A program made the translations under genes and the position numbers. A stretch of 64,000 nt of DNA, taken from an uncultured Rikenellaceae bacterium. GTDB taxonomy: Bacteria > Bacteroidota > Bacteroidia > Bacteroidales > VadinHA17. Below, one piece after another: positions 3,944-58,988 of the stretch. How positions within the stretch are numbered: the first letter of the stretch is position 1; each line of letters starts with the position of its first letter. The notes below the pieces were generated by a model, which had not been told where the DNA came from, did not search any database, and worked only from the letters and a program-made list of their open reading frames with translations. Where the stretch lies: NCBI GenBank assembly GCA_964389685.1, contig CAYMFM010000004.1, positions 1,310 to 65,309 of the forward strand, written 5' to 3'.

Positions 3944-4981
3944 TATTGGCTGCTTATTAGTTGGATTCATGCATAAGACAGATTACGGAGAAGGAGTTCA
4001 TGAAGGTGGAGGATTGATGTAATTTACTCGCCCTGATAAATCATTCCTCGTGTAATTCACTTTCCGCCGGCGGATAACGTAATTCGTTCGTTCGCCACCT
4101 GACTGCCGTGTATTTCTTCAATATTTAGGTAACAGATTTTTGATTCATATTTTATGATCTATTTAGCTATCCAATAGACGAATTTTTCATGCGTATTCTG
4201 GAGTATATAAAGAAGAGAATCCCGGAGGGATTAAAGTATGAATAGCCCGGTACAAGCCCCGACAATCTCGTCGGAGCGCAGTGCCGGGTATTGAGATGAG
4301 ACTTAACCCGAAAAATTCTTTGAATTTTTCGCCATTTATGGCTGACGAAAAGTCAAATTCAAGTATGTTAACTGTTTCACTCAACAGTTATCTTCAAAAC
4401 TGATGAAAATTTCATACCCAAACTTGAGGGTATTGAATTTGACTTTTATCAGGGTTAACCCTGACATATATAATTGATAATCAATAGATTTCAATTATGT
4501 GTCGTCATTATTCATGCTGAATGCATGAATAATTCGGGTTAAGACCAACCCCGGATGCCTGCCTGCCGGCAGGCAGGGGGTTGAATATTATTACGTTAAA
4601 AAGAAACATTCAACCCCTTTAGGGTTGTAAATCATCTGTTACAAAGCACCACCGGTGACAACCGGTGGTTATTCAATGTTCTACCCCTGTCGGGGTATGA
4701 TAATGATTTTAAATCAAAATTAAGTTGAACAAGACAGAATATCACGTAAGAATAAATAAGAAGAACAACATTGTTACCGAAATTGTGAAGTATTACACTG
4801 CTGGCGGACTCACTGTTATTTATACGCTGACGCGAATGTTATTCATTGTTATTACACATTATTTAGCACTTACCGGGAATCACTTAATAACGGTCGCATA
4901 GCGACCAAATAACCATAAATAACGCTCCCGAAGGGAGCAAATAACCACTTAATTATTACCACTTTCCCATTACTGATTAAC
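3944..4981. repeat. 1038-bp ORF-free region densely packed with short perfect stem-loops
   Basis: Hand-mapped hairpins (5-10 bp stems, 3-8 nt loops) at 4309-4331, 4369-4390, 4414-4433, 4508-4532, 4558-4577 (20-nt perfect palindrome), 4648-4669, 4682-4697, 4892-4906 and 4924-4938. Only one short implausible ORF (4187-4384) is present. Confidence 0.7.
4300..4546. mobile_element. possible MITE-like or inverton-like unit bounded by an imperfect 19-bp inverted repeat
   Basis: Left arm gacttaacccgaaaaattc (4300-4318) versus the reverse complement of the right arm gaataattcgggttaagac(c) (4527-4546). 16 of 19 positions match and the interior is about 208 bp. The left arm recurs at 9843-9883. Confidence 0.3.
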
Positions 4982-7135: not shown

Positions 7136-7189
7136 TCGTTCAGGTATCTATAAATCACATACATGCAATTCCTCAGAATGGAATCGTCA

Positions 7190-7197
7190 CAAAGGTA
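7190..7197 (-). promoter_or_regulatory. Bacteroidota sigma-A -7 box (TAccTTTG on the minus strand) upstream of pgpH
   Basis: Plus strand caaaggta equals minus strand TACCTTTG, matching the TAnnTTTG consensus, 55-62 nt upstream of the ATG at 7135. The 8-mer is individually weak, since many chance matches are expected. Confidence 0.35.
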
Positions 7198-7668
7198 AAA
7201 CATTATTTTGAAATGCAGTATCGCATTTCGTTGGTCGGTTACGAATCCCGTTTCGAAATCCGGTTACGAAATTTGGGACAATGGAATCACTCAGGAATGC
7301 TAATCACCTTCGGGATAAAATCATCCTGGTACTTTGGTTCGTTTCTTTTGATCGTTCAACCCCGAAGGGCTCATGAACACCTTTGAAAATAAACAATTAA
7401 GTGAGTAAAAGAGATGAACTGGGATTTCCTCGAAGGGGTCCCTATGAAATAATCCCATGGTATTGGATATTCGTCATGGTACGTTGCTATTTCACAGGGC
7501 CTGTAGCAAATCGATCCATTTGGGATTCTCTCATTAATAAGGGTTCCTGCATTCCGCCGGATGAAACGTATGGTTTTTCAAACAACCAAGCAGTTCCGGC
7601 AATTTATGTTGCGTTACCTTTACCCCGGCTTAAAAGCCGGGGCTATTGACTTTTAACCACTCTGTGGT

Positions 7669-7706
7669 TAATATCCCCAATCGCCCGAAGGGCGAATAAC
7701 CGCCTT
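7669..7706. repeat. hairpin repeat copy: ATCCCCAA-tcgccc-gaa-gggcga-ATAACCGCCTT
   Basis: Near-identical to 8214-8252. The hairpin lies at 7681-7695. It is preceded by two further hairpins: ccccggc/gccgggg at 7623-7642 and ttaaccac/gtggttaa at 7652-7670. Confidence 0.7.
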
Positions 7707-8123
7707 ATAAGAATTGCGTATGAAAACCGGGACGTAGGGTAAATGCCAGAAAGATAAAATGCTGTCTGATCCCGCCTTTGCCTGCCCTACCTGCATTGCA
7801 AGTAAACAAGATTCTCAATAAGCCACAACCTCTACCAGCCGATTCATAAAGCAGCCCATTACGGAGAACCACTGTGGATAAATCCTACCAGTCCCTAATA
7901 ATTTGATCAATTTCTCAACCAGCGAAGAAAACGTAGCAGATTTGCAGCAGGAAGAGGCGGGAGAGTTCATTTTATCTGTGCCTGCTGGGTCCCCTGGTTT
8001 TCAAGCAATTCTTATGCAGCGGGAGCTTTCTTTGCTACCTTTCTTTTGCGGAAAAAGAAAGGTAGGCAAGCCGACCGGGCACGGCGCGCAGAAAAATGGC
8101 TTGTGTGTAAGACTTCATAAAAA

Positions 8124-8148
8124 AGAGGCTGCTTTTTGAGCAGCCTCT
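8124..8148. terminator. orphan bidirectional intrinsic terminator-like hairpin
   Basis: agaggctgc (8124-8132), loop tttttga, gcagcctct (8140-8148). An A6 run lies upstream, which is a T6 tail on the minus strand. The plus-strand tail is actattttta. It is not downstream of any credible CDS. Confidence 0.5.
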
Positions 8149-8213
8149 ACTATTTTTATGTATTATAACGATTTAATGAAGTAGCGTGATATTTCCTGCT
8201 TTCTTGAATCGTT

Positions 8214-8283
8214 TACGATCCCCAATCGCCCGCCAGGGCGAGTAACCGCCTTCTGCCGAAGGCCCGCCTGCCGGCAGGTATGA
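8214..8283. repeat. hairpin repeat copy plus GC palindrome cluster
   Basis: ATCCCCAA-tcgccc-gcca-gggcga-GTAACCGCCTT (hairpin 8226-8241). Then gccttc-tgcc-gaaggc (8248-8263). Then the 12-nt palindrome cctgccggcagg (8267-8278). Confidence 0.7.
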
Positions 8284-8382
8284 CAATTGTATCGACCCTG
8301 TGAAATAGAGGCAACACCGCTCCTTCTAAGCAGAATTACACATGGTGAATAAATGCATGGCTCTCGCATGACAAAAAATTTA

Positions 8383-11139: not shown

Positions 11140-13425
11140 TTAAACCAGCAGATTACCAACCTGGTAAACAATGAAAGCCAATAGCCATGCCAGACCGGTA
11201 GTATAGGCTATGGTGAACAGGGCCCATTTCCAACTCCCGGTTTCATTTCGTATTGCGGCAATCACTGCAATACAGGGGAAATAGGTAAGGATAAAGATCA
11301 TAAAACCGAGTGCCACCACCGGGGTAAAGGTAGTTTCATCGTGATTTTTATTTTGTTGAACGGATGAATTTCGTAAAACATTCATCAGTGATTCATGTTT
11401 GGAATCATTTTGAGAATTAGCCTGGTAGAGTATTCCCATGGTGCTTACCACAATCTCCTTGGCAGCGATTCCGGACAGGAGGCTTACACCCATTTTCCAG
11501 TCGAATCCGATTGGTTTCAGGGCAGGTTCAATGAATTTACCAATTTGTCCTATGTATGAGTTTTCATGCCGTTCGGCTTCTTTTTTCAAAATAATTTGCT
11601 GTATTTGCATCTCCCTCTCCTCGTCCAGGGTCTTTTTTTCTGATCCATTTTCCGGTGAAAGAAGGGATGATCTTTCGGTAAACCGGTTATTGATTTCCGA
11701 CAGTTCCTGTTCATAATTAACGGAATAATCCACATCTCTCGGGTAATAGCCCAGTGCCCAGATTATGACAGATGCAACGAGTATTATCCCGCCCATTTTT
11801 TTCAGGTATTGAGCCCCCTTTTGCCACATGTGTACCACTATTGTGCGAAATGATGGTGCGCGATAGGGAGGGAGTTCCATGACAAATGGGATCTCCTCGC
11901 TTCTGAAAATTGTTTTTTTAAATGTAATAGCCACCAGGGTTGCCAGAACAATACCAATAAAATAGATAAGGAAGAGCATTAATCCCGGATGGCCGGGGAA
12001 AAAAGCCCCGATAAGCAGAATGTATACCGGTAATCGGGCACTGCATGACATGAAGGGGTTGATCAGGATGGTAAGGATCCTGTTGTTGCGGTTCTCAATA
12101 GAACGGGTTGCCATGATTGCAGGGACATTGCAACCAAATCCCATCAAGAGAGGGATAAACGATTTTCCATGGAGGCCGATTTTATGCATGACTTTATCCA
12201 TGATGAACGCTGCCCTTGACATGTACCCGGTATCTTCCATCAGGGATATGAAAAAGAAGAGGATCAGGATATTGGGAAGGAATATAATGACACTTCCTAC
12301 CCCTTCAATAATCCCATGTATGATCAGGTTTTTAAATGATCCTTCCATCATGGATGCTTCGAGCCATCCGGAAAGCAAATTGATTCCGGAATCCAGCCAG
12401 TCCATAGGATATTGTCCCAATTCAAAGGTTGAGAAGAACATGACAAACATAAAAAAGAGAAAAATCGGGTATCCGAAAAGACGGTGTGTCATGAACGAAT
12501 CAATTGCCTCGGTTTTGTCCATACGGGATTCACCACCAACAAAGGTTTCTTTGAGTGCACCGGAGATAAACCCATACCGGGCATCCCTGATCAATGTATC
12601 GCTTTCTTCATTATACATCTGTTCAAGCCTGCTCATTTCCAATTGAGTACACGTCTTTATTTTTTCATGGTTGCTCAATACGGAAAGGGTGAAATTGATG
12701 GATTCATCTTTTTCAAGAAGCCTGACAGCATAGAACCGGGAAGATATAGCGATAAATCGTTCCTGATTCTGCCGGATCTCTTCTTCTATTTTCCGGATCG
12801 ATGTTTCAACGGTTTTTCCATAGTTGATATGAATCCGTCTATATGGTTTATTCTCTTCATATACGTCAATCACACTCTGAAACAACTCCTTAATACCATA
12901 TCCATTGGTGCTGATGGTAGGTATGATTGGAATTCCGATCATTTTCGCCAGCGAATGGTAATCGAATTTATCCCCCTTTTTAATCATTTTGTCATGCATG
13001 TTCAATGCAATGACCATTTTTACATCCATATCGATCAGCTGGGTGGTGAGGTAAAGATCTCTTTCCAGGTTTTCACTGTTGAGGACATTGATTACCACAT
13101 CTGGCATTTCCCCTAAAATGTATTTTCTTACATTGAACTCTTCAGGTGTATGGGCGGAAAGGGAATAGATACCAGGGAGTTCCACGATATTGAATTCATA
13201 CCCATCCTGTTCGATAATGACAGATCCAGATTCAAGGGTCACATCCGTATTGTTGGTGACCTGCTGATTCGTATGGGATGCATGCTGCAAAAGAGTCGTT
13301 TTTCCTGACTGGGGGTTTCCAACAAGTGCTATAGTCAGTGATTTACTCTTCGCTTGTTCTGCTTCCTGCAAGTTTTTCCCTGGCATGGGAACTGCTTCAT
13401 TATTTTGAAATTTTGAGCGATCCAT
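11140..13425 (-). CDS. feoB: ferrous iron transporter FeoB
   Basis: 761 aa. N-terminal G domain (ALVGNPQSGKTTL) followed by a polytopic membrane domain with gate motifs. No FeoA domain or adjacent feoA ORF was seen. Confidence 0.92.
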   Translation of the reverse strand: MDRSKFQNNEAVPMPGKNLQEAEQAKSKSLTIALVGNPQSGKTTLLQHASHTNQQVTNNTDVTLESGSVIIEQDGYEFNIVELPGIYSLSAHTPEEFNVRKYILGEMPDVVINVLNSENLERDLYLTTQLIDMDVKMVIALNMHDKMIKKGDKFDYHSLAKMIGIPIIPTISTNGYGIKELFQSVIDVYEENKPYRRIHINYGKTVETSIRKIEEEIRQNQERFIAISSRFYAVRLLEKDESINFTLSVLSNHEKIKTCTQLEMSRLEQMYNEESDTLIRDARYGFISGALKETFVGGESRMDKTEAIDSFMTHRLFGYPIFLFFMFVMFFSTFELGQYPMDWLDSGINLLSGWLEASMMEGSFKNLIIHGIIEGVGSVIIFLPNILILFFFISLMEDTGYMSRAAFIMDKVMHKIGLHGKSFIPLLMGFGCNVPAIMATRSIENRNNRILTILINPFMSCSARLPVYILLIGAFFPGHPGLMLFLIYFIGIVLATLVAITFKKTIFRSEEIPFVMELPPYRAPSFRTIVVHMWQKGAQYLKKMGGIILVASVIIWALGYYPRDVDYSVNYEQELSEINNRFTERSSLLSPENGSEKKTLDEEREMQIQQIILKKEAERHENSYIGQIGKFIEPALKPIGFDWKMGVSLLSGIAAKEIVVSTMGILYQANSQNDSKHESLMNVLRNSSVQQNKNHDETTFTPVVALGFMIFILTYFPCIAVIAAIRNETGSWKWALFTIAYTTGLAWLLAFIVYQVGNLLV

Positions 13426-35394: not shown

Positions 35395-35814
35395 ATGTTA
35401 GACCAACATCTATTAGATTTACTCATGCGATCACTGGATGGTGATCTGGATGATACGGATCGGACGATGCTTGAAAAAGCACTATCTGAATCGGAAGAGC
35501 TTAGAAAAGAAAAAAATAAGCTGATTCGCCTCAGAGAACTTGTTGGTTCCGGGGATTATCAGTTTAAACATGGATTTACGGATCGGGTGATGAACCGCCT
35601 GACAAAATCAAAGAACGGGAAAAGCATTGAATTTAATTTTGCCAGAGACCTGAACCGAATTTTCATGAGAGTTGCCATTACCGGAGTTGCTGCAATTATC
35701 CTGCTGCTCCTTAGCATTTATCTGACAACAGGTTCCGTTTCCCTCGATTCGTTAAGCGGAGCGGAATACTATTCAGAAGATAATGTGATCAGTTATTTGT
35801 TAATCGAAGAATAA
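35395..35814 (+). CDS. putative anti-sigma factor (single-pass membrane protein)
   Basis: 139 aa starting 7 nt after the sigma gene. N-terminal helical cytoplasmic part and one TM helix (VAITGVAAIILLLLSIYL). Confidence 0.55.
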   Translation: MLDQHLLDLLMRSLDGDLDDTDRTMLEKALSESEELRKEKNKLIRLRELVGSGDYQFKHGFTDRVMNRLTKSKNGKSIEFNFARDLNRIFMRVAITGVAAIILLLLSIYLTTGSVSLDSLSGAEYYSEDNVISYLLIEE

Positions 35815-36330: not shown

Positions 36331-36900
36331 ATGAAAAAGATGGTTGTAACACAAATCATGATTTTTTTACTGGCAGTAACCCCTGGTTCGAATATTTTCT
36401 CCCAGCAGGGCAGGGGATTGGGTCCATGTGGATTGGGACTCGGACCGGGAAATTTTCCAAACTACCGGATATTGGACCTGACGGAGGAGCAGAAGACACA
36501 AATGAGGGAATTATGGCTTGAGCAATCGGAGGTTCTAAGCCCTCTGAATACAGAATTGCAGAAGCTCAGATTAGCCTATTGGGATCTTATTGCTGAATCA
36601 GATGAAGACCTGGATGCGATCAACAAGAACATAGACCAGCAAACTGATCTGCAGAAAAAAATCATGAAAGAAAATGCTCGTTTCAGAAAAAAAATGGAAG
36701 GGGTATTAACAGAAGAACAAAAGGAGTTGCTTGATTCGGAATTTCCTTTTGGCAGAGGCATGTATGGAAGATGGAATCCACCCGGACGCGGATACGGTCA
36801 GGGATACAGGGATGGATTTGGTAGAGGTTATGGCAGAGACTATGGACGAGGCTATGGCAGAGGCTATGGCAGAGGATTTGGACCGGGTGGAATCTGGTAG
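36331..36900 (+). CDS. Spy/CpxP-family periplasmic protein with C-terminal GYGRG repeat tail
   Basis: Signal peptide and two LTEEQ motifs (LTEEQKTQMREL, LTEEQKELL). The last 40 aa read GRGYGQGYRDGFGRGYGRDYGRGYGRGYGRGFGPGG. Confidence 0.65.
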   Translation: MKKMVVTQIMIFLLAVTPGSNIFSQQGRGLGPCGLGLGPGNFPNYRILDLTEEQKTQMRELWLEQSEVLSPLNTELQKLRLAYWDLIAESDEDLDAINKNIDQQTDLQKKIMKENARFRKKMEGVLTEEQKELLDSEFPFGRGMYGRWNPPGRGYGQGYRDGFGRGYGRDYGRGYGRGYGRGFGPGGIW

Positions 36901-40349: not shown

Positions 40350-40445
40350 CCTTTAGAAAGCTTTATACCCTCCTGCACTGAACAGAGCATTGGAGACAGG
40401 ATTACTCCTGGATAGCGGATTTATGCAATCAAAAAACATGTTGTT

Positions 40446-41879
40446 ATGAAAAAAATAATTATCGGCATATTGGCCATCTGTAACATCGGCTGGTCTTTCA
40501 CTCAGGAAAACAAATGGACCCTGGCAGAATGCATTCAGCATGCCCTGGACCGGAATATTACGATAAACCAGAGGAAGCTAAACAATGAGTTATCTGAAAT
40601 AACCCTGGAACAATCCAAAGCCGATTTGCTGCCTAACCTTACGGCTTCAGGAAGTCAGAGCTGGAACTTCGGACGGTCCGTTGATCCCTATACCAATGAT
40701 TATGTTAGTACAAATGTCGGGAGCAATAATTTTGGATTAAGCACCAGCGTAACCCTGTTTGACGGATTGCAGAGTATTAATACCATTAAAAAGAACCAGA
40801 TTGATGTGGAATCGGGGACACTGGATCTTGAGCAAACAAAGAACGATATCATTCTCAGTGTCACACAGGCTTACCTGCAGGTCCTTTTTGCCTATGAACA
40901 GGTCGAAAATACCTCCATCAGCCTGGAATCTACCGCTGCCCAGGTGGAGAGAACGCAAAAACTGGTGAATGCAGGAAGCTCTCCTGAAGGGGATCTTTTC
41001 AAGATCAATTCGCAGCTTGCGTCCGATCAGTACAGCCTGGTAAATGCAGAAAACCAATTATCCATGGCCAAAGTGAACCTGATGCAGATCATGGAATTGC
41101 CGGTCGAAGAGGAATTTGATGTTGTCATCCCAGAATTTGATGTTACAACAATCGGAATTGCCTATTCCGGAGCGTCTGATGAAATCTATGCAAAAGCACT
41201 GGAGGTTCAACCGGAAATAGAAAGCTCGCAACTTAAGGTTGCCAGTGCCGAGCAGAGCCTGAAAATTGCCAGGGGTGCCCTCTATCCGCGACTTTCACTA
41301 TCTGGAAGCCTGGGTTCTGGATATTCCAATGCACGAACCCTGAGGCAATATGGAGAGCCAACTACAGTGATTCAGGAGGTTGGATATTTGCAAAGTGACC
41401 CTTCAGAAATTGTTGTAGCTGAACGGGAGTTTACTTCATCTTCAATCGCTGACTATAATTTTGGTAATCAGATCAGGGATAATTTGAACGAATCGGTGAG
41501 ACTGAGCCTTAGCATTCCCATCTTTAACCGGTTCCAGGTGAGAAACAACATCAGCCGTTCAAAAATCAATGTCGAAACGGCTGAACTGAACAAACAGAAT
41601 ACAGAAAACCAGTTGAGAAAAACAATCGAACAGGCGTATAACGATCTTGTATCTTCCGCTAAAAATTATGACGCTGCAGTGGAGCAACTGAAATCCCTGG
41701 AGCGTTCCTATAATGACACGGAACGAAAATATGAACTGGGTATGGTCAATGCGACCGATTATCTCATTGAAAAAAATAACTTTGAGAATTCAAAGTATAG
41801 CCTCACGAGGGCAAAATATGAATACATTTTTACCTTTAAGATCCTTGATTTTTACCAGGGGAATCCGATTACCTTTTGA
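40446..41879 (+). CDS. tolC: TolC-family outer-membrane efflux protein
   Basis: 477 aa. Signal peptide and two tandem OEP repeats (LTLEQSKADLLPNL..., ALYPRLSLSGSLG...). Confidence 0.88.
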   Translation: MKKIIIGILAICNIGWSFTQENKWTLAECIQHALDRNITINQRKLNNELSEITLEQSKADLLPNLTASGSQSWNFGRSVDPYTNDYVSTNVGSNNFGLSTSVTLFDGLQSINTIKKNQIDVESGTLDLEQTKNDIILSVTQAYLQVLFAYEQVENTSISLESTAAQVERTQKLVNAGSSPEGDLFKINSQLASDQYSLVNAENQLSMAKVNLMQIMELPVEEEFDVVIPEFDVTTIGIAYSGASDEIYAKALEVQPEIESSQLKVASAEQSLKIARGALYPRLSLSGSLGSGYSNARTLRQYGEPTTVIQEVGYLQSDPSEIVVAEREFTSSSIADYNFGNQIRDNLNESVRLSLSIPIFNRFQVRNNISRSKINVETAELNKQNTENQLRKTIEQAYNDLVSSAKNYDAAVEQLKSLERSYNDTERKYELGMVNATDYLIEKNNFENSKYSLTRAKYEYIFTFKILDFYQGNPITF

Positions 41880-41907: not shown

Positions 41908-43320
41908 ATGAAAAAGAAACTTATAATTACAGCCGTTGTCCTGATACCGGTAGTTATTGCAGGATTTTTTATTCTCAGAAAGGATAAAACATTTGATATA
42001 GAATGGGAACCCAAAGAGGTTGAGAAAGGAGACATAAACATTGAGGTGACTGCAACCGGAACCCTGGAAGCAGTAACCGAAGTTGAGGTTGGAACTCAGG
42101 TTTCCGGTATCCTCTCCGAATTATATGTGGATTTTAATTCAAAAGTCAGGAAAGGACAGGTGATCGCAAGACTGGATACTACCACGCTTGCAGCCCAGGT
42201 ATTCGATTCCAGAGCAAACCTTGAACGGGTAATGATCCGTTTGAACCAGGCTGAACGGGATTGGAAAAGAACCCAGCAACTTTTTGAAGAGAAAGTGGTA
42301 GCCCAGGTGGAGTATGACCAGGCACTCGATGACTATGAAACCGCCAAATCAAATGTACTATCGGCTGAGGCACAGCTAAACAGAAATATTATTAACCTGA
42401 ATTACGCAACCATCACAGCTCCCATCGATGGAATTGTGATTTCAAAAAATGTCGAAATGGGACAAACCGTTGCTGCCAGTTTTAACTCACCCACGCTTTT
42501 CAATATCGTGAATGATCTGACAAAGATGCAGGTGGAAGCCAGTGTGGATGAAGCAGATATCGGTCAGATCAAGGAGGGGCAGAGTGTTACTTTTACGGTA
42601 GATGCTTTTCAGGATGAACAGTTTGAAGGAGTGGTCCGGCAGGTTCGCTATCAGCCGGTCATTGTTTCCAATGTGGTAAACTATACGGTCATTGTAGATG
42701 TAGCCAACCCGGATATGAAGCTGCTTCCCGGAATGACAGCCAATATAACCGTGAATATTGATAAGCGGGAAGATGTATTGAAGGTTCCCTCCCGGGCACT
42801 TAGCTTTACTCCTCCTACAGTATACCTTGCGCTTCTATATGCAGAACTGCCGGATTCAGTCAAACAGCAGCAGGAAGAGAGAATCGCTGAAATGACAGAA
42901 CGGATGGAGTCTATGGGATTGTCACAGCAGCAAATCGACCAGATGGTCGAACGGGTGAGATTGATGGGAATATTTGGGGGTGGACAGCAACAACGCCCTG
43001 AAGGAATGGCCAGGAGGTTGGGTGGCGGTACGACTGGAGGTCAGAGAACTTCGGGAGAGATGCCTCAAACGGGCAATAGATCGCAACGTTTTGGCAATTT
43101 TGGGCAGGTGTGGATAAAAGATGGAGAAGGAGTGCGACCTGTACGGGTGCGAACAGGGATCACCGACGGCAGTAATGTGGAAATCATTAGTGAAGAACTG
43201 GAAGAAGGTACATTGGTTGTGATATCAGCATTGTATGATGAAGAGCAGGAAGAACAGGTAACCCAGACAAACAACCCATTTGCACCTGCCGGTCCGGGTA
43301 GAGGAAGAAGGATGAGGTAG
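41908..43320 (+). CDS. macA: MacA/HlyD-family periplasmic adaptor subunit with Gln/Gly/Arg-rich insertion
   Basis: TGTLEAVTEVEVGTQVSGIL lipoyl motif, a coiled-coil hairpin, and a beta-barrel. A low-complexity insert of about 90 aa includes GGGQQQRPEG...GGGTTGGQRTSG (42976-43104). Confidence 0.85.
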   Translation: MKKKLIITAVVLIPVVIAGFFILRKDKTFDIEWEPKEVEKGDINIEVTATGTLEAVTEVEVGTQVSGILSELYVDFNSKVRKGQVIARLDTTTLAAQVFDSRANLERVMIRLNQAERDWKRTQQLFEEKVVAQVEYDQALDDYETAKSNVLSAEAQLNRNIINLNYATITAPIDGIVISKNVEMGQTVAASFNSPTLFNIVNDLTKMQVEASVDEADIGQIKEGQSVTFTVDAFQDEQFEGVVRQVRYQPVIVSNVVNYTVIVDVANPDMKLLPGMTANITVNIDKREDVLKVPSRALSFTPPTVYLALLYAELPDSVKQQQEERIAEMTERMESMGLSQQQIDQMVERVRLMGIFGGGQQQRPEGMARRLGGGTTGGQRTSGEMPQTGNRSQRFGNFGQVWIKDGEGVRPVRVRTGITDGSNVEIISEELEEGTLVVISALYDEEQEEQVTQTNNPFAPAGPGRGRRMR

Positions 43321-43682
43321 GTTTGAGTTATGCCATAGGCCCGCCTGCTGCGGGCAGGCATCCCTTCGGGATAAGTTAATGGTTGAAAGTTAGTGGTGAG
43401 TAATGAGTCCCGCCTACTCCGTCAGCTGACGGATACGGCAGGCGAGGGGTGAGAGGTGAGATGGAGTGACTAAGAGACGAGGAGACTGTGTGACGGGTAA
43501 CGGAGGATAGGAAGAATAAAGAAGCAAAGGGAAGGATGAAGGATGAAGGATGAAGGATTAAGGATGAAGGATGAAGTAGCAAAGAGCAAAGAGTATAGAG
43601 TAAGGGGAAAAAACCGGGAGCAGTGACGAGTGACGAGTGACGAGAAAAAATAGTTAACATCTATTCAAGGGAGTTAAAATTT
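43321..43682. repeat. intra-operon spacer A: GC hairpin cores plus an array of about 28 degenerate heptanucleotide repeat units
   Basis: One continuous 7-nt register from 43447 to 43644. GAAGGAT x6 at 43531-43572 and GTGACGA x3 at 43623-43643. Hairpins at 43339-43359 and 43360-43372, and a 16-nt palindrome at 43418-43433. Confidence 0.85.
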
Positions 43683-44426
43683 ATGGATAAAATCATTTCA
43701 GTACGAAACCTGACCAAGGTGTACGATATGGGGTTGGTGAAGGTGCATGCTTTACGTGGTATAGATCTGGATATTTATACGGGAGAATTCACCGCCATTA
43801 TGGGTTCCAGCGGATCCGGGAAGTCAACCTTTATGAATATTGTTGGTTGCCTCGATCTTCCAACCGAAGGTGAATATTTCCTGGATGGCAAAGATGTGAG
43901 TAAATTGAACAAAGACCAGCTGGCCAAAACGAGAAACCTGAAAATAGGATTTGTGTTTCAAACATATAACCTGTTGTCCAGGACTTCAGCACTGGAGAAT
44001 GTCGAGTTACCTTTATTATATAATCCTTCAATTCGAGCAAAAGAGCGTAAGGAGAGGGCCATGCAATCCCTTGAAATGGTGGGACTGGCCGATTGGCACC
44101 ACCATTATCCAAACCAGTTATCTGGTGGACAACAACAGCGGGTGGCTATAGCAAGGGCTTTGGTTAACAACCCGGTAATAATTCTTGCCGATGAACCAAC
44201 CGGTAACCTCGATACCCGTACCAGTTATGAAGTAATGGAGATTTTCCAGGATCTGAATAGCAGGGGAATGACCATAACCCTGGTTACACACGAATATGAT
44301 ATTTCCCAGCTGGCCGGAAGAGTTGTGAGTTTCCGTGACGGGAGGGTTAGTAAGGAGATGGTTGTTGAGAAGATAAGGAATGCGCGTGATGAGCTGGCAA
44401 AACTTCCTGTAGAAGATGAATATTAA
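43683..44426 (+). CDS. macB: MacB/LolD-type ABC transporter ATP-binding protein
   Basis: Walker [10 protein letters not shown], signature LSGGQQQR, Walker [12 protein letters not shown]. Confidence 0.92.
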
Positions 44427-44444
44427 TAGTAAAATCATGAAAGC

Positions 44445-45671
44445 ATGAAAATACTCAACTTATTTGTTGTCGCATACCGGTCGCTGAACAAGAACAAAGT
44501 CCGGTCATTACTTACCATGCTTGGGATAATTATTGGGGTGGCATCGGTGATCGCTATGATTGCTATAGGACAGGGTTCAAGGGATAGTATTGAAGAACAG
44601 ATCTCCAGCATGGGAACGAATGTAATCATGCTTTTCCCGGGTGCATCGTTCCGGGGAGGTGTTGCAACTGCAGCCGGTGAGGCACAAAGCATAAATATGG
44701 AAGATGTTAATGCTATCCGGGATAATTGTCCATCGATTAAATACATCAGCCCGGTTTCCAGGGCAAGCGGACAGGTGATCGCTGGCAATAGTAACTGGAA
44801 CACACAGGTGTACGGAGTATATCCGGAATATATGGGTATTCGCAATCTCGAGATCTCCTCCGGTGAGATGTTTACCGATGTTGATGAGCGAAGATCAGCT
44901 AAAGTTTGCATCATTGGGACTACAGTGGCTGAAAACCTCTTTGACGAGTATACAGATCCTGTCGGACAAAAGATACGGATCCGGAATATTCCCTTTACCA
45001 TAATCGGAGTGCAAAAGAAAAAGGGTGGAAGCAGCATGGGATCCGATCAGGATGATATCATTTATGCTCCCTATTCAACCGTCCAGAAACGGATGAGGGG
45101 CGGAACCTCAACCAACGTGCAGCAAGTTTACCTTTCCTCTATATCGGAAAAGCATATTGAAAAAGCAAGTGAGGAAATTGACCAGCTGTTGCGGGATCGA
45201 AAGAAACTGAGCCGGTATGAAGATCCTCCCTATATGATCCGGACTCAAAGTGAAATTACAGAAATGTTTACATCCACTTCCGATACGATGATCATCCTGC
45301 TTGCCAGCATAGCCAGCATTTCACTGATCGTAGGAGGAATCGGGATCATGAATATCATGCTTGTTTCCGTAACGGAAAGAACAAGGGAAATTGGACTGCG
45401 TATGGCCGTAGGGGCAAGGGGAAGAGATATCCTGCGCCAGTTTCTCCTGGAAGCAGTATTGCTTAGCCTTATTGGCGGATTAATTGGTGTGGGAGGAGGA
45501 ATAGGCGCATCCAAACTGCTCGTCTCTGTTATGAACTGGCCGGTTTCTGTAACATCCTATTCCATTATTCTTGCCTTTGCATTTGCTTTCGTTATCGGTG
45601 TATTCTTTGGGTGGTACCCGGCACGAAAAGCTGCCTTACTTGTACCAATGGATGCGTTGAGGTATGAATAA
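44445..45671 (+). CDS. MacB-type ABC transporter permease (MacB periplasmic domain + FtsX domain)
   Basis: 408 aa. TM1, a periplasmic domain of about 220 aa, then three C-terminal TM helices with the FtsX-type motif TREIGLRMAVGARGRDI. Confidence 0.9.
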   Translation: MKILNLFVVAYRSLNKNKVRSLLTMLGIIIGVASVIAMIAIGQGSRDSIEEQISSMGTNVIMLFPGASFRGGVATAAGEAQSINMEDVNAIRDNCPSIKYISPVSRASGQVIAGNSNWNTQVYGVYPEYMGIRNLEISSGEMFTDVDERRSAKVCIIGTTVAENLFDEYTDPVGQKIRIRNIPFTIIGVQKKKGGSSMGSDQDDIIYAPYSTVQKRMRGGTSTNVQQVYLSSISEKHIEKASEEIDQLLRDRKKLSRYEDPPYMIRTQSEITEMFTSTSDTMIILLASIASISLIVGGIGIMNIMLVSVTERTREIGLRMAVGARGRDILRQFLLEAVLLSLIGGLIGVGGGIGASKLLVSVMNWPVSVTSYSIILAFAFAFVIGVFFGWYPARKAALLVPMDALRYE

Positions 45672-46044
45672 AGTGACGGGTGACGAGTGACGAGTGACGA
45701 GTTCCGCCTACGTCAAGACTGCAGCGGACAAGAGATGAGAAATGAGAGGTGAGTTTTGAGTTGTGAGAAATGAGTAGTGAGTTGACTTTGTAAAAGTGAG
45801 ACTTTGTGACGATGAGAGGTGAGATAGAGCGACGAAGCGACTGAGAGACGGAGAGATGAAAGCTGTCACCAGTCCGAAAAAACAAGAACTAAAAACTGAA
45901 ACCAAATTGTTGAACCACAAATATTCATAATAAAAACATCTATTAACATTCTTGTCACGCGTCACGCGTTACTCGTCACTTTTACACAATGTTAACCGAA
46001 AACTATTAACAATATCAATACTAATCCTTTAAAACTAAACAATC
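45672..46044. repeat. spacer B: heptanucleotide repeat array bounded by inverted GTGACGR arrays
   Basis: GTGACGR x4 at 45673-45700. NNNTGAG units in one register from 45733 to 45823. The reverse-complement array gtcacgc gtcacgc gttactc gtcac lies at 45954-45979. Confidence 0.85.
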
Positions 46045-46782
46045 ATGAAAAGAATCAGTACAATTATCCTGCTTATTGCATTTATTGCAGTAGGAAACGG
46101 ATTTGCTCAGAGTCTTGAGGAGATCCTGAAAAGTCATGCAGAAATAATGGGATTTAACAAGCTTGCCGGCGCCAAGACCATCATCATAACCGGTAAAAGC
46201 CAGAGAGGGGAAAATGACAGCCCGTTCACCATTTACATCAAAGGTGAAAAATCCCGGTATGAGTCCGATTTTATGGGTAATAAAATGGTCAGGGCCCACG
46301 ACGGTAAAACGGGTTGGATGAGGAATCCCCGCGATGGCAGTATCATGGAACTTGAAGGCAGACAGCTGGAACAAATGAGCCAGGCAACCCAGTTGGGTGG
46401 GATCCTGTACCAGTGGAAGGAGAAAAATTTCAAGATCGGATTGGAAGGAAAAGAAAAATTTGAAGGTACTGATGTATTTAAACTAAAGGTTACCAGGGAG
46501 GATGATGTGGTGACCTATGCCTATCTTGATTGCGAGAGCTATGTCCTCCTTAAGCAGACTTCAGTACGGGTTTTCCAGGGCAATGAATTTGAATCCACAA
46601 CAGTATTCAGTAATTATCAGATGGTTGAGGGTGTAGCAGTGGCTTTTAATTCAGAGACAGCATCTGCCGGAGGTGGTGGCCAGGGCAGAGGTGGCAGAGG
46701 TATGGGTGGAACGCAGGTCATTGAGAAGGTCGAATTCAACAAACCCATTGATGATGCATTGTTTAAAAGACCGGAAAAATAA
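46045..46782 (+). CDS. LolA-fold outer-membrane lipoprotein-sorting-like protein with Gly/Arg-rich segment
   Basis: Signal peptide MKRISTIILLIAFIAVGNGFAQ and a LolA-like beta-rich sequence. The segment AGGGGQGRGGRGMGG is encoded at 46666-46710. Confidence 0.55.
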   Translation: MKRISTIILLIAFIAVGNGFAQSLEEILKSHAEIMGFNKLAGAKTIIITGKSQRGENDSPFTIYIKGEKSRYESDFMGNKMVRAHDGKTGWMRNPRDGSIMELEGRQLEQMSQATQLGGILYQWKEKNFKIGLEGKEKFEGTDVFKLKVTREDDVVTYAYLDCESYVLLKQTSVRVFQGNEFESTTVFSNYQMVEGVAVAFNSETASAGGGGQGRGGRGMGGTQVIEKVEFNKPIDDALFKRPEK

Positions 46783-49800: not shown

Positions 49801-49933
49801 CAGGAAATGCGAAAAGGAACTGACAGATATCTCAGAGATCGAGCTGGTGAGGTTAAACCAGTTGCTTGAGGTAGCAGGAGCAAGGCCCCTGAAAATCATG
49901 ACCCGTGAGGAGTACGAAAAGGAAAACAAATAG
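46829..49933 (+). CDS. sortilin/VPS10-type BNR-repeat beta-propeller protein (often annotated as a glycosyl hydrolase)
   Basis: The ATG at 46829 gives a signal peptide. There are many SxDxGxTW-type BNR/Asp-box repeats (TTDGGESWSK, TTNGGETWEK, TANGGKSWEK, TNDKGETWER, SHDLGGTWR, SKDRGDTWER, TTDGGKKWKN, TRDMGKSWQS, SIDQGKAWSK). Confidence 0.8.
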   Translation: MKRITHFISRSGVLLVPVVFLFVYPLKGQEGVTIDSYTFGAIEARHIGPARMSGRITSLDALFDDYRLVYVGTAGGGIWKSTNAGVTFKPVFDDYNQCIGAIAIDQHHPDIVWAGTGEPWTRNSISVGDGIYKTTDGGESWSKMGLENTERIGRIEIHPENPDIVYVAALGHLWNENEERGVYKTTNGGETWEKILYVDENTGCSDISMDPENPDILHAAMWDFRRQPYTFRSGGPGSGLYKTANGGKSWEKLTNDLPADTLGRISVDVSPAYPNIVYAVIECDSTGLYRTNDKGETWERMTTASTIGERPFYFNLILADPNNPNKLFKPGLNLNITTDGGKNFERSGGFHSDVHAIWVSKRDTNFIYLGTDGGVYVSHDLGGTWRIMRNLPVSQFYHVSADMKIPYNVYGGLQDNGSWMGPSAGPGGIKNGDWDNVGGGDGFYVFPDRLDENIVYYQSQGGNIQRLYLNSRETKNIKPEKDENTEDLRFNWNTPVSFSKDGKTMYVGSQYLFRSKDRGDTWERISPDLTTDDPEKQKQKESGGVTIDNTGAENHCTIMTIHESPVDPKIIWVGTDDGNIQVTTDGGKKWKNVVSKLPGLPSSTWCSYVYADPFDKNTAYATFDGHRNGDMKPYVFMTRDMGKSWQSLVDGNITGYCHVIMSDPVNTKLLFLGTETGLFISIDQGKAWSKFTGNMPDVAIRDMYIHPRDHDLILASHGRGIIIIDDITPLRNLKHEMVDQDIVFLLSRPFTVRNFGYQQEYGGSDEFVGPNPGQSGIISYYLKKRHIFGDMYLEVYDDHEELINTLVAGKRRGINRVPLSIRKKAPPIGEMRSRSFRSFGAMQGPAMPAGEYTIVIVKEDTRVRGTFTLLDDPQSPHSPEDRQLQRQTANKAYDMLINLDFLDKRIKKLVDDGKAISGELKDTVLVSQIKRFNETLGAMRDSLYVSSSGESFTGEKRLREKLVEIYSDVNSYMGKPTSFQVSGLDKLNVELRKCEKELTDISEIELVRLNQLLEVAGARPLKIMTREEYEKENK

Positions 49934-50651
49934 TAGATAAATTCCGGTAGATAATTGATCCAATACAGAGTAAAATCAGTATTTCGCCAATAATAAACAT
50001 TCCCCATGCAAAACGGGCAGGAACGTATGTGGTGATGACACGCTGGAATTCAAGATTTTTAGCTAAATGGAGTATATCCGAAAGAAAACCTCCCCGGATC
50101 AGTATAAGGCTGTAATCTCTGATGAATGAAAGGGAAATGATAAAAGCTCCTGAAAGAAGAAAGATCCATTCACCGGTTTTAAGCTTCAGAGAAGCTATTT
50201 TTTCTGAGGGATAACTGGTTACGAGGGCAAAACAGATCATGGTCAGGGAACAGATGAGCGGGGCAAGAACCGGTCCGACCCAGGTTACTGGAATGAGAAA
50301 CAGGAGATCCCAGGTTAACAGGGATGTCGGCCAATTCAGGAAGAGCTTCAGTGCGACATAATAAAAGATATCCCATACCCCAAAAAGGTAAAGGGAAAAT
50401 CCGAATTTCTGCAGGGGAGTTCTTCCGGCAAGCAGTCCGACAGTTACCAGCATGACCAGTGTTGAGAATTCCCTCACCAGCTCAATGACAAGTAGCTTTA
50501 CATCAAAGGTTTGGAGGGGGAACTCAAAACCAGCGGGATAGTACAATTCACGGAGGTAAACCACTACGATTGCTTCCAGGAATCCCATAAAGAGGGCGAA
50601 GATCCCGGTGATCAGGAGCCGGCGGGAGAAGTCAGATAATGTATGTTGCAT
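49896..50651 (-). CDS. polytopic membrane protein, unknown function
   Basis: 251 aa with about 7 predicted TM helices. The 3-prime end overlaps the convergent gene by 38 nt. Confidence 0.55.
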   Translation of the reverse strand: MQHTLSDFSRRLLITGIFALFMGFLEAIVVVYLRELYYPAGFEFPLQTFDVKLLVIELVREFSTLVMLVTVGLLAGRTPLQKFGFSLYLFGVWDIFYYVALKLFLNWPTSLLTWDLLFLIPVTWVGPVLAPLICSLTMICFALVTSYPSEKIASLKLKTGEWIFLLSGAFIISLSFIRDYSLILIRGGFLSDILHLAKNLEFQRVITTYVPARFAWGMFIIGEILILLCIGSIIYRNLSTICFPFRTPHGS

Positions 50652-58732: not shown

Positions 58733-58988
58733 GGAGGAATGTAAATAATGAATAATGAATATTGAATACTGAATTTTGAAACAGGACGTAAGGAAGAATG
58801 GAGGAGTTCAAGGTTCAGAGTACAGAGTTGGAGAGGTGAGTTATGAGTTATGAGTGAAAAGAAATTGAATTATTACATAATGATGCCTGCCCGACGGTTT
58901 ACCAGCCTGTGGCTGGCAGGCGGGTCTCTGGCATAACTTATAACGTATCAACTTATAATGTATTAACTTATCAACTTATACCCGTCCC
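58733..58988. repeat. spacer C: heptamer arrays of opposite polarity flanking a GC hairpin core
   Basis: AATAATG-type units at 58744-58785 and GAGTTCA/GAGTTAT-type units at 58804-58858. GC core at 58885-58921. ATAACTT-type (reverse polarity) units at 58933-58980. Confidence 0.85.

Follow-up and report, generated by a model that had tools for sequence, protein, structure and literature searches.

A heptanucleotide-repeat intercistronic spacer in the macB efflux gene row of an uncultured Bacteroidales bacterium

Heptanucleotide repeats of intergenic DNA have been on record since 1990, and among the long simple repeats of many bacteria they are the most common. The subject of this report is spacer B, the non-coding gap that follows a macB-type ATP-binding cassette (ABC) permease gene in 64,000 nucleotides of DNA from an uncultured Rikenellaceae bacterium (GCA_964389685.1, contig CAYMFM010000004.1, positions 1,310 to 65,309 of the forward strand), a stretch that is referred to throughout as the window. 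Among the systems already described, intergenic TAACTGA heptamers have been reported by MacGregor in 2015 from Beggiatoaceae, Cyanobacteria and five Bacteroidetes (PMC4679880), and the intergenic regions of Bacteroidetes can hold assemblages of several heptamers that are missing from close relatives (PMC4679880). As relayed in that paper, Mrazek (2007) found heptamers to be the most abundant long simple repeats, possibly as a result of polymerase slippage. According to other work cited there, CspB of Bacillus subtilis can bind direct repeats of heptamers, one protein to each heptamer.

Three other systems are relevant. In Xanthomonas, Rehm 2015 (PMC4692102) describes 70-75 convergent pairs of GGGAATC arrays, mostly intergenic and lying nearest to the upstream open reading frame (ORF); their length varies between species and they are mostly transcribed. 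In Haemophilus influenzae, transcription covers the (ATCTTTC)n tract upstream of hmw1A, and the tract supplies one arm of a long hairpin that is cut by RNase III; expression depends on the number of units, and both the hairpin and RNase III affect expression and repeat-number change (Rapun-Araiz 2025, PMC12721329). Finally, repetitive extragenic palindromic (REP) elements are characterized by placement at gene ends, inverted pairing, and GTAG or CGTC tags (PMC3733652). A literature search found no paper on GTGACGA arrays, which occur at the locus described here.

Arrays and inverted arms of spacer B

Spacer B is non-coding, lineage-specific DNA, built in place from 7-nt arrays of the GTGACGR, TGAG and TTAAC types. 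It is neither a gene nor a single transposon, and judged by its sequence it belongs to the known bacterial kind of intergenic heptamer repeat; like other heptanucleotide simple sequence repeats (SSRs), it has tandem 7-nt units beyond chance, an intergenic location and a lineage-specific excess. We lean towards reading it as a heptanucleotide-repeat intercistronic spacer that is likely transcribed as a structured domain and possibly acts as an RNase III or stability element, an account that we hold to be somewhat probable. Two further repeat spacers, A and C, lie in the window, and each of the three separates co-directional genes of the + strand. The parts of spacer B are as follows.

45672-46044, + strand: spacer B, the entire 373-nt non-coding gap
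45670-45701, + strand: 5' arm of the long inverted repeat, which holds (GTGACGR)x4 at 45673-45700
45703-45728, + strand: 26-nt GC-rich hairpin module TCCGCCTACGTCAAGACTGCAGCGGA, present in RNA and single-stranded DNA (ssDNA) folds
45733-45823, + strand: NNNTGAG lattice of period 7, with 9/13 units in register
45813-45849, + strand: stretch common to spacers B and A, GGTGAGA units and then a GAC..AAG.GAC..GAGAC motif
45872-45950, + strand: A-rich, G-poor tract holding AACATCTATT (45935-45944)
45951-45982, + strand: 3' arm, with GTCACGC GTCACGC GTTACTC GTCAC at 45954-45979
45983-46044, + strand: A/T-rich, TTAAC-rich leader of the downstream gene

The left half of the spacer is G/A-rich and C-poor, and the right half is A-rich. 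The left array reads GTGACGG GTGACGA GTGACGA GTGACGA (45673-45700) and begins 2 nt past the TAA stop codon of the permease gene (45669-45671). It is followed by the TCCGCCTACGTCAAGACTGCAGCGGA module, in which TCCGC at 45703-45707 pairs with GCGGA at 45724-45728 in the minimum-energy folds. AAA precedes the 5' arm, TTTT stands directly after the 3' arm, and the array of the 3' arm lies 65 nt upstream of the next start codon. Matches to the GTGACGRGTGACGR pattern number 8, where 0.58 would be expected.

An initial annotation of this DNA, all of whose coordinates proved correct, had described the lattice as nine TGAG units in one register. Spacer B contains 11 copies of TGAG, 9 of which share one 7-nt phase, while the best phase in 1000 dinucleotide shuffles averages 1.6 and never exceeds 4, so that the lattice stands well outside chance. 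The same annotation had proposed that the GTGACGR and YCGTCAC arrays could pair and enclose about 250 nt, and this too is borne out. A repeat finder returned arms of 32 nt at 45670-45701 and 45951-45982, which are 27/32 (84%) complementary and 249 nt apart, and a hand count of the 32-position stem gives 27 Watson-Crick pairs, 3 G.U pairs and 2 A.G mismatches. Within the spacer proper, the best 32-nt inverted match is 25/32, above the 18.4 +/- 0.95 (maximum 22) obtained from 300 dinucleotide shuffles. The minimum-energy fold includes the long stem in the RNA of the + strand (-88.8 kcal/mol, z = -3.7), in the RNA of the - strand (z = -2.8) and in ssDNA (z = -2.0). In every spacer tested the sense strand gives the better fold of the two, and in every spacer it is C-poor. 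With 32 nt and a repeat tract as one arm, the stem has the makings of an RNA duplex of the hmw1A type, for which about 20 bp or more are needed.

The period-7 enrichment that was expected of such a locus is present and is confined to the three spacers. By autocorrelation over the 64-kb window, 64 windows of 42 nt reach at least 30 period-7 matches, all of them inside spacers A, B and C, and none does so for periods 4-6 or 8-11. Six period-7 arrays occur in the 64-kb window, against 4 short ones in 503 kb of distant macB loci; the latter come from a metagenome scan with the permease, which returned relatives of at most 60% identity and served as a control, not as a source of orthologous spacers. 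The two companion spacers are organized as follows.

43321-43682, + strand: spacer A, from the membrane-fusion protein (MFP) gene to the macB ATPase gene
43332-43372, + strand: 41-nt hairpin module of spacer A
43409-43444, + strand: second hairpin of spacer A
43531-43576, + strand: (AAGGATG)x6.6 of spacer A
43623-43643, + strand: (GTGACGA)x3 of spacer A
58733-58988, + strand: spacer C, (AATAATG)n plus further arrays
58837-58855: (GAGTTAT)x2.7 of spacer C
58883-58932, - strand: 50-nt hairpin module of spacer C
58933-58980: inverted (ATAACTT/ATCAACTT)n of spacer C

Spacer A also holds GGTGAGA units and (AGCAAAG)x2, and its arrays lie 38 nt upstream of a start codon. Sequence shared between spacers A and B had led the initial annotation to regard them as two copies of one composite element. 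The shared pieces are real: the 13-mer GAGTYCCGCCTAC occurs at 43405 and 45699 and nowhere else in the window (0.05 expected), A 43450-43486 and B 45813-45849 are homologous over 37-38 nt, and with the GTGACGR arrays removed the local alignment of A with B scores 40, against 20 +/- 2.5 for shuffles. The 10-mer AACATCTATT lies in both spacers (43656 and 45935), with a third copy at 35405 (0.29 expected). The TGAG lattice of spacer B is, in addition, homologous to the GAGTTAT array of spacer C. Spacers A and B are nevertheless not duplicates of a single discrete element: spacer A has no inverted partner array and no excess structure (z = +0.4), it is entirely different in one close relative (L204, below), and the arms of spacer B are missing from sister species that keep the lattice. 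The orthologous spacers of relatives show each spacer to be put together in place from arrays and small hairpin modules with independent turnover. Spacers A and B are more aptly called two mosaics that draw on a common pool of building blocks.

The genes around these spacers form a row that is read in one direction.

40446-41879, + strand: tolC-like gene
41908-43320, + strand: MFP/HlyD gene
43683-44426, + strand: macB ABC ATPase gene
44445-45671, + strand: macB-type ABC permease gene with MacB_PCD and FtsX (Pfam, ORF list)
46045-46782, + strand: gene for 245 amino acids with a weak LolA-like match, the 3' neighbour of spacer B

In protein searches the nearest named proteins are from Marinifilaceae (Ancylomarina, Labilibaculum), at about 66-70% identity. 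The LolA-like gene is syntenic across all close relatives. The gap between the MFP and ATPase genes is 362 nt here, against -7 to 151 nt (median about 23) in 48 distant macAB loci, so that spacer A is an addition inside a normally compact operon. No Rfam family matches at gathering threshold anywhere in the 64-kb window. A consensus scan of 43200-46200 for promoters and terminators found none above shuffles, no sigma-70-type promoter rises above background in spacers A, B and C, and the Bacteroidetes -7 motif TAnnTTTG is missing from 17/17 spacers examined. The stem of spacer B was also considered as an intrinsic Rho-independent terminator and rejected, as it encloses 249 nt, against the loop of 3-8 nt above a short GC-rich stem and before a U tract that defines such a terminator, and the consensus scan found none, though TTTT trails the 3' arm. 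Three antisense ORFs of 85-97 amino acids match no Pfam family; they owe their existence solely to the scarcity of stop codons on the antisense strand, and the repeat spacers thereby account for spurious antisense ORF calls at this locus.

Spacers and hairpin modules in close relatives

The relatives that could be compared are loci from Bacteroidales metagenome-assembled genomes (MAGs), recovered by protein search and from their contigs, with 99-83% permease identity and the same gene order.

L211: permease 99% identical in amino acids
L204/L205: permease 93% identical in amino acids, about 95-96% nucleotide identity to the window
L208: permease 91% identical in amino acids
L209/L210: permease 91% identical in amino acids
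L206: permease 90% identical in amino acids, about 80-84% nucleotide identity
L207: permease 83% identical in amino acids, about 65-72% nucleotide identity

Across the series spacer A measures 362, 356, 271, 113, ~66-100, ~49-70 and 65 nt. Between the window and L211 it differs in copies of AAGGATG (6.6 versus 4.6) and GTGACGA (3 versus 5) and by one further 7-nt indel; judged by these alignments of spacer A, arrays of the kind found in spacer B change by whole units between strains. Its interior is wholly replaced in L204, at about 95-96% nucleotide identity, while the flanks align right up to the spacer edges; the heptamers there are AAGTTAT/AAGTTAA (left) and AATAACT (right). Spacer A of L204 and spacer C of the window repeat the left/right inversion of the arms of spacer B, built from GAGTTAT and AACTTAT units. 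Orthologues of spacer C come from L212-L215, and no two species have spacers of the same content and length.

Spacer B behaves differently at the shortest distances. The initial annotation had envisaged that related genomes might differ in unit number, which holds for spacer A versus L211, but in spacer B only base substitutions were found: it is 373 nt long in the window, L211 and L204, with 2-3 substitutions and no unit change, one of the substitutions falling in the 5' arm of L211. At larger distances its length becomes 338 nt (L208), 236 nt (L209) and 610 nt (L206), and these three lack the GTGACGR arms. They retain the TGAG lattice just past the stop codon, for example as gtgagaaatgagtagtgag, and the TTAAC-rich leader before the downstream ATG, partly as (TTTAACC)n; L208 and L209 also retain a small CCGCC..GGCGG hairpin ahead of the lattice. 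The arms are thus confined to the three closest genomes and the lattice is common to the genus, and as the arms are missing where the lattice persists, they are a recent addition around older resident repeats. In L207 the gaps are short and without repeats, and its 21 kb contain no period-7 array.

Compared with L204, the region as a whole is a mosaic, with 2-36 differences per 200 nt. Within window 45462-46061 the divergence shifts abruptly at the stop codon of the permease: the last 50 nt of the permease gene have 10 differences, and spacer B has 2 in 373 nt. This suggests recombination among co-occurring strains or a mosaic assembly; L204 and L205, which are independent assemblies, agree at both spacers. 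Other differences lie outside the heptamer arrays. The alignment with L204 breaks at the 12-nt tandem repeat TGGCAGAGGCTA (4.8 copies, window 36819-36875, within ORF 36331-36900), which suggests a copy-number difference in a coding region. Two intergenic indels of about 86-92 nt, neither of them heptamers, are found at window 40355-40440 versus L204 6087/6088 and at L204 15489-15580 versus window 49933-49941. In L215, which has 83% aminopeptidase identity, the gene next after that for the aminopeptidase is an integrase-core (rve) gene (11894-12682); in the window this place is taken by spacer C and an ornithine cyclodeaminase gene, and synteny breaks at the spacer.

Interleaved with the arrays are GC-rich hairpin modules, for which copy number was read from the 64 kb only. 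CCGCCTRC has 6 copies in the window, where 1.3 are expected, and 4/6 of them lie inside heptamer spacers; GCCTGC..GCAGGC palindromes (0.02 expected) match 4 times, at 3 distinct sites. The 41-nt module of spacer A is inserted at gagttat^aagttaa in the window and L211, where L204 has plain heptamers, and a hairpin of about 66 nt interrupts the GGTTGCT array in spacer B of L206, an array that is unbroken in L208. These present/absent comparisons at conserved sites identify the hairpin modules as inserted units.

The modules recur in non-orthologous spacers and in either orientation. The 23-mer AGTTATGCCAnAGnCCCGCCTGC lies in spacer A on the + strand and in spacer C on the - strand (0 expected), in the latter beside AGTTAT. 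The TCCGCCTACGTCAAGACTGCAGCGGA module of spacer B is inverted within an AACTTAT array in spacer C of L214 (27 nt, 92.6% identical), which also holds a piece related to the 45813-45849 stretch. Spacer A of L204 and spacer C of L212, which belong to different species, have a common core of 58 nt (89.7% identical, E = 4e-15), with GAGTTAT-type and AACTTAT-type arrays on its flanks. The modules bear neither a GTAG nor a CGTC tag, the flanking bases being GAGT, TAGG, AGAGA and TTGA, and no REP-associated tyrosine transposase (RAYT) is in view in the window, outside which none was sought. Related hairpins are found far from the three spacers. Two stretches of the window of about 1 kb each (3944-4981 and 7136-8300) are without a long ORF and dense in short GC-rich stem-tetraloop hairpins, some of which are followed by AAATAACC, as in the 32-nt repeat at 4893-4947. 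The GCCTGCC..GGCAGGC palindromes at 4557-4574 and 8258-8280 are related to the hairpin modules of the spacers, and neither stretch matches an Rfam family.

Paired arrays in other phyla and competing explanations

The initial annotation had anticipated that arrays of this type would be found at other loci, and they are, in spacer A and in at least 120 genomes elsewhere. The latter were recovered by scanning one genome per species for exact (GTGACGA)x3, which gave at least 120 loci; the scan probed GTGACGA only, and no claim is made that this heptamer is privileged among heptamers. The figures that follow hold among the matches listed. These span roughly a dozen phyla, with taxa taken from record titles, among them Chloroflexota, Acidobacteriota (especially Pyrinomonadaceae), Verrucomicrobiota, Planctomycetota, Bacteroidota (Saprospiraceae, Bacteroidales), Nitrospirota, candidate phyla and a few cultured isolates. 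The loci contain 306 period-7 arrays, against 7-90 for periods 5, 6, 8 and 9 and 1 for period 10. The GTGACGA array has an inverted (TCGTCAC)x2 no more than 600 nt away at 44 loci, and in 43/44 of these pairs the G-rich arm is 5' on both strands; other heptamer pairs at the same loci keep this G-first polarity 11:2. The stems measure 12-98 bp, most of them 16-37, with about 91% Watson-Crick pairs, and the loops are mostly 4-140 nt. The settings are co-directional in 28 cases, convergent in 11 and divergent in 1. The pairs begin 0-5 nt past the upstream stop codon, and many are bordered by A and T runs. Spacer B obeys these rules, but its loop is 249 nt long and filled with other arrays.

Two observations stand beside this survey. 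A Pyrinomonadaceae MAG (L021, 791-864) carries an inverted (GAAGGAT)n..(TTCATCC)n pair, the same heptamer as the AAGGATG of spacer A, though the phylum is an unrelated one. Further, (GTGACGA)x3 occurs on 25 viral contigs in IMG/VR (L216-L240), one of which, L235, has two pairs, each a + copy followed by a - copy in convergent arrangement.

It is conceivable, though we regard it as improbable, that heptamer-armed palindromes form a distinct cross-phylum class of gene-end element with fixed polarity. Strict polarity is not expected from slippage alone, so that either a dedicated generating mechanism or a shared selective rule would be called for. The generator could be fold-back or template-switch synthesis, for example, or repeat addition at facing 3' ends; the rule could be that the C-rich arm is never single-stranded in the transcript, or alternatively that the ORF-adjacent arm has to contain stops in every frame. 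On this view spacer B would count as an expanded member of the class, its loop colonised by further arrays.

In the reading that we favour for spacer B, that of a transcribed structured domain, the arrays would grow and shrink by replication slippage, the hairpin modules would be a small dispersed or mobile repeat family, and the inverted arm may have arisen by copying of the GTGACGR array, via template switching or conversion. We infer that the spacer is transcribed together with the tolC-MFP-macB-lolA-like gene row; no promoter or terminator consensus lies inside it. The GUGACGR arm, 2 nt past the stop codon, would then pair with the YCGUCAC arm, and the resulting stem of about 30 bp would close off a domain of 249 nt. 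So long a duplex is a plausible substrate for RNase III or barrier to 3' exonucleases, and it could in this way uncouple or tune the expression of the neighbouring cistrons, much as in REP/BIME elements and the heptamer-repeat hairpin of hmw1A.

A number of points weigh against this proposal, of which function is the weak step. Like spacer A, two orthologous spacers have no excess structure (z = -0.6 and +0.85, beside +0.4), so that a closing stem is no general requirement. The three arm-carrying genomes are nearly identical at the arms, which makes covariation uninformative. In 43 cross-phylum stems, G.T versus A.C mismatches do not flip with gene orientation and give no hint that one RNA strand is under selection, in a comparison biased by the way in which the loci were oriented. 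Spacer B's low divergence falls in a strongly mosaic region and is thus not readable as purifying selection. Simple avoidance of Rho was considered as a purpose and set aside: the left half of the spacer fits it, but the right half has more C than G and is unstructured. Finally, co-transcription, folding in vivo and cleavage are all steps that we infer.

The main rival holds that spacer B is a neutral by-product, 7-nt slippage debris tolerated in intergenic DNA, with arrays and stem that play no role. We consider this unlikely, though a serious alternative. It would readily accommodate the replacement of spacer A at about 95% nucleotide identity, content and length that vary in every species, spacers without excess structure, and the lack of any promoter, terminator or Rfam signal. 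Heptamers are, moreover, the commonest long simple repeats in many bacteria, where they have been attributed to polymerase slippage (Mrazek 2007, cited by both PMC4679880 and PMC4692102). It has more difficulty with the lattice, in which the TGAG core is constant and the NNN variable across species, since neutral decay should lose phase evenly. The 43:1 polarity of the arms, the position of pairs right after stop codons and the avoidance of divergent gaps, all among the matches listed, also speak against it, as do a sense strand that is C-poor in every spacer and the near invariance of spacer B in three strains.

Three further readings are less well supported. It is very unlikely that spacer B is a non-autonomous transposon of the MITE type (from miniature inverted-repeat transposable elements), with 45670-45982 moved in as a unit and the arrays serving as terminal inverted repeats (TIRs) bound by a transposase. 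Inverted arms do flank the 249-nt core, non-orthologous spacers of L204 and L212 do have their 58-nt core in common between arrays, and three sites within 2.7 kb carry GTGACGA arrays in this species alone. Yet no target-site duplication is evident at the arm boundaries, neither the window nor some 150 kb of sequence from relatives contains a second full-length copy, and arm unit numbers vary freely. The interior of spacer B, lattice and hairpin, is orthologous to arm-less spacers of sister species, which means that the arms were added around resident sequence and did not arrive together with it.

The phased lattice might alternatively be read by a protein that binds single-stranded RNA or DNA, either of the cold-shock or S1 type or a ring resembling HutP, which would bind TGAG and regulate the flanking genes. 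HutP is a ring protein that reads triplets at 7-nt spacing. Nine in-phase TGAG motifs, whose 4-nt core is invariant, whose 3-nt spacer is free and which are kept across the genus, would suit such a protein, and the C-poor left half leaves the lattice weakly structured; binding by S1, cold-shock protein (Csp) or CsrA has been proposed for TAACTGA repeats (PMC4679880). We give this slightly less credence still than a transposon, as the analysis turned up no candidate protein, the lattice shares its ancestry with a plain GAGTTAT array, and many different heptamers coexist, contrary to a single specific reader. Least probable of all is a contingency (phase-variation) locus, in which unit number would alter spacing or 5' untranslated region (5'-UTR) structure and so switch the downstream gene: unit number is polymorphic between strains, the arrays lie 38 nt (spacer A) to 65 nt (3' arm of spacer B) upstream of start codons, and hmw1A is a proven heptamer-tract precedent (PMC12721329), but unit number is unchanged in contigs from three other samples with an identical permease, the arrays have no promoter motif within or beside them, and the flanking genes are housekeeping efflux and metabolic genes, not surface antigens.

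Relation to known repeat systems

Two by-products of this analysis stand out as the most useful, the comparative series and the cross-phylum polarity rule. The former supplies graded natural variants within a conserved efflux operon, with spacers of 65 to 610 nt, gains and losses of units, and modules present or absent, and is therefore material for asking what the spacers do to operon expression. The latter, together with stop-adjacent placement across phyla, gives concrete testable hypotheses. There is also a practical side, in that heptamer repeats may break assemblies, as MacGregor suspected for Elizabethkingia contigs (PMC4679880).

Elements of the REP, BIME and REPIN kinds (PMC3733652, PMC3116915) may resemble the present modules, as far as the 64 kb show, in being small, GC-rich, imperfect palindromes dispersed in extragenic DNA, which in REP elements measure 20-40 nt and recur at many extragenic sites. 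They likewise mainly follow coding regions, in co-directional or convergent settings, often occur as inverted pairs that form larger hairpins, and have been proposed to stabilise or attenuate mRNA. Unlike those of REP elements, the long arms of spacer B are tandem heptamers and not single palindromes.

The GGGAATC arrays of Xanthomonas, as described in Rehm 2015, share with spacer B the presence of two nearby convergent arrays, G-rich first, near the end of the upstream ORF, and a repeat type that is kept while its length varies between related species. Their unit forms G-quadruplexes, which GTGACGR cannot. Their pairs are said to stand 'in close proximity'; the arms of spacer B are 249 nt apart with other arrays between them.

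With hmw1A and hmw2A of Haemophilus influenzae the likeness would be one of RNA architecture, a heptamer tract that may serve as one arm of a long hairpin, and hmw1A supplies a mechanism tested by experiment for structures of this kind. The partner arm of hmw1A is a G-rich non-repeat region, whereas that of spacer B is itself a heptamer array. The hmw1A tract lies between promoter and adhesin gene and switches rapidly.

Like spacer B, the short tandemly repeated repetitive (STRR) sequences of Calothrix and Nostoc, the long SSRs and the TAACTGA repeats consist of tandem intergenic 7-nt units. The likeness to the TAACTGA/STRR class extends to a setting that is often co-directional, to several heptamers per region, and to relatives with shorter, repeat-free gaps. 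Spacer B and its companions differ from that class in their heptamers, which are GTGACGR, NNNTGAG, AAGGATG and GAGTTAT, and in their host, an uncultured Bacteroidales lineage related to Marinifilaceae; they differ, too, in having GC-rich hairpin modules interleaved with the arrays and one array that has a distant inverted partner.

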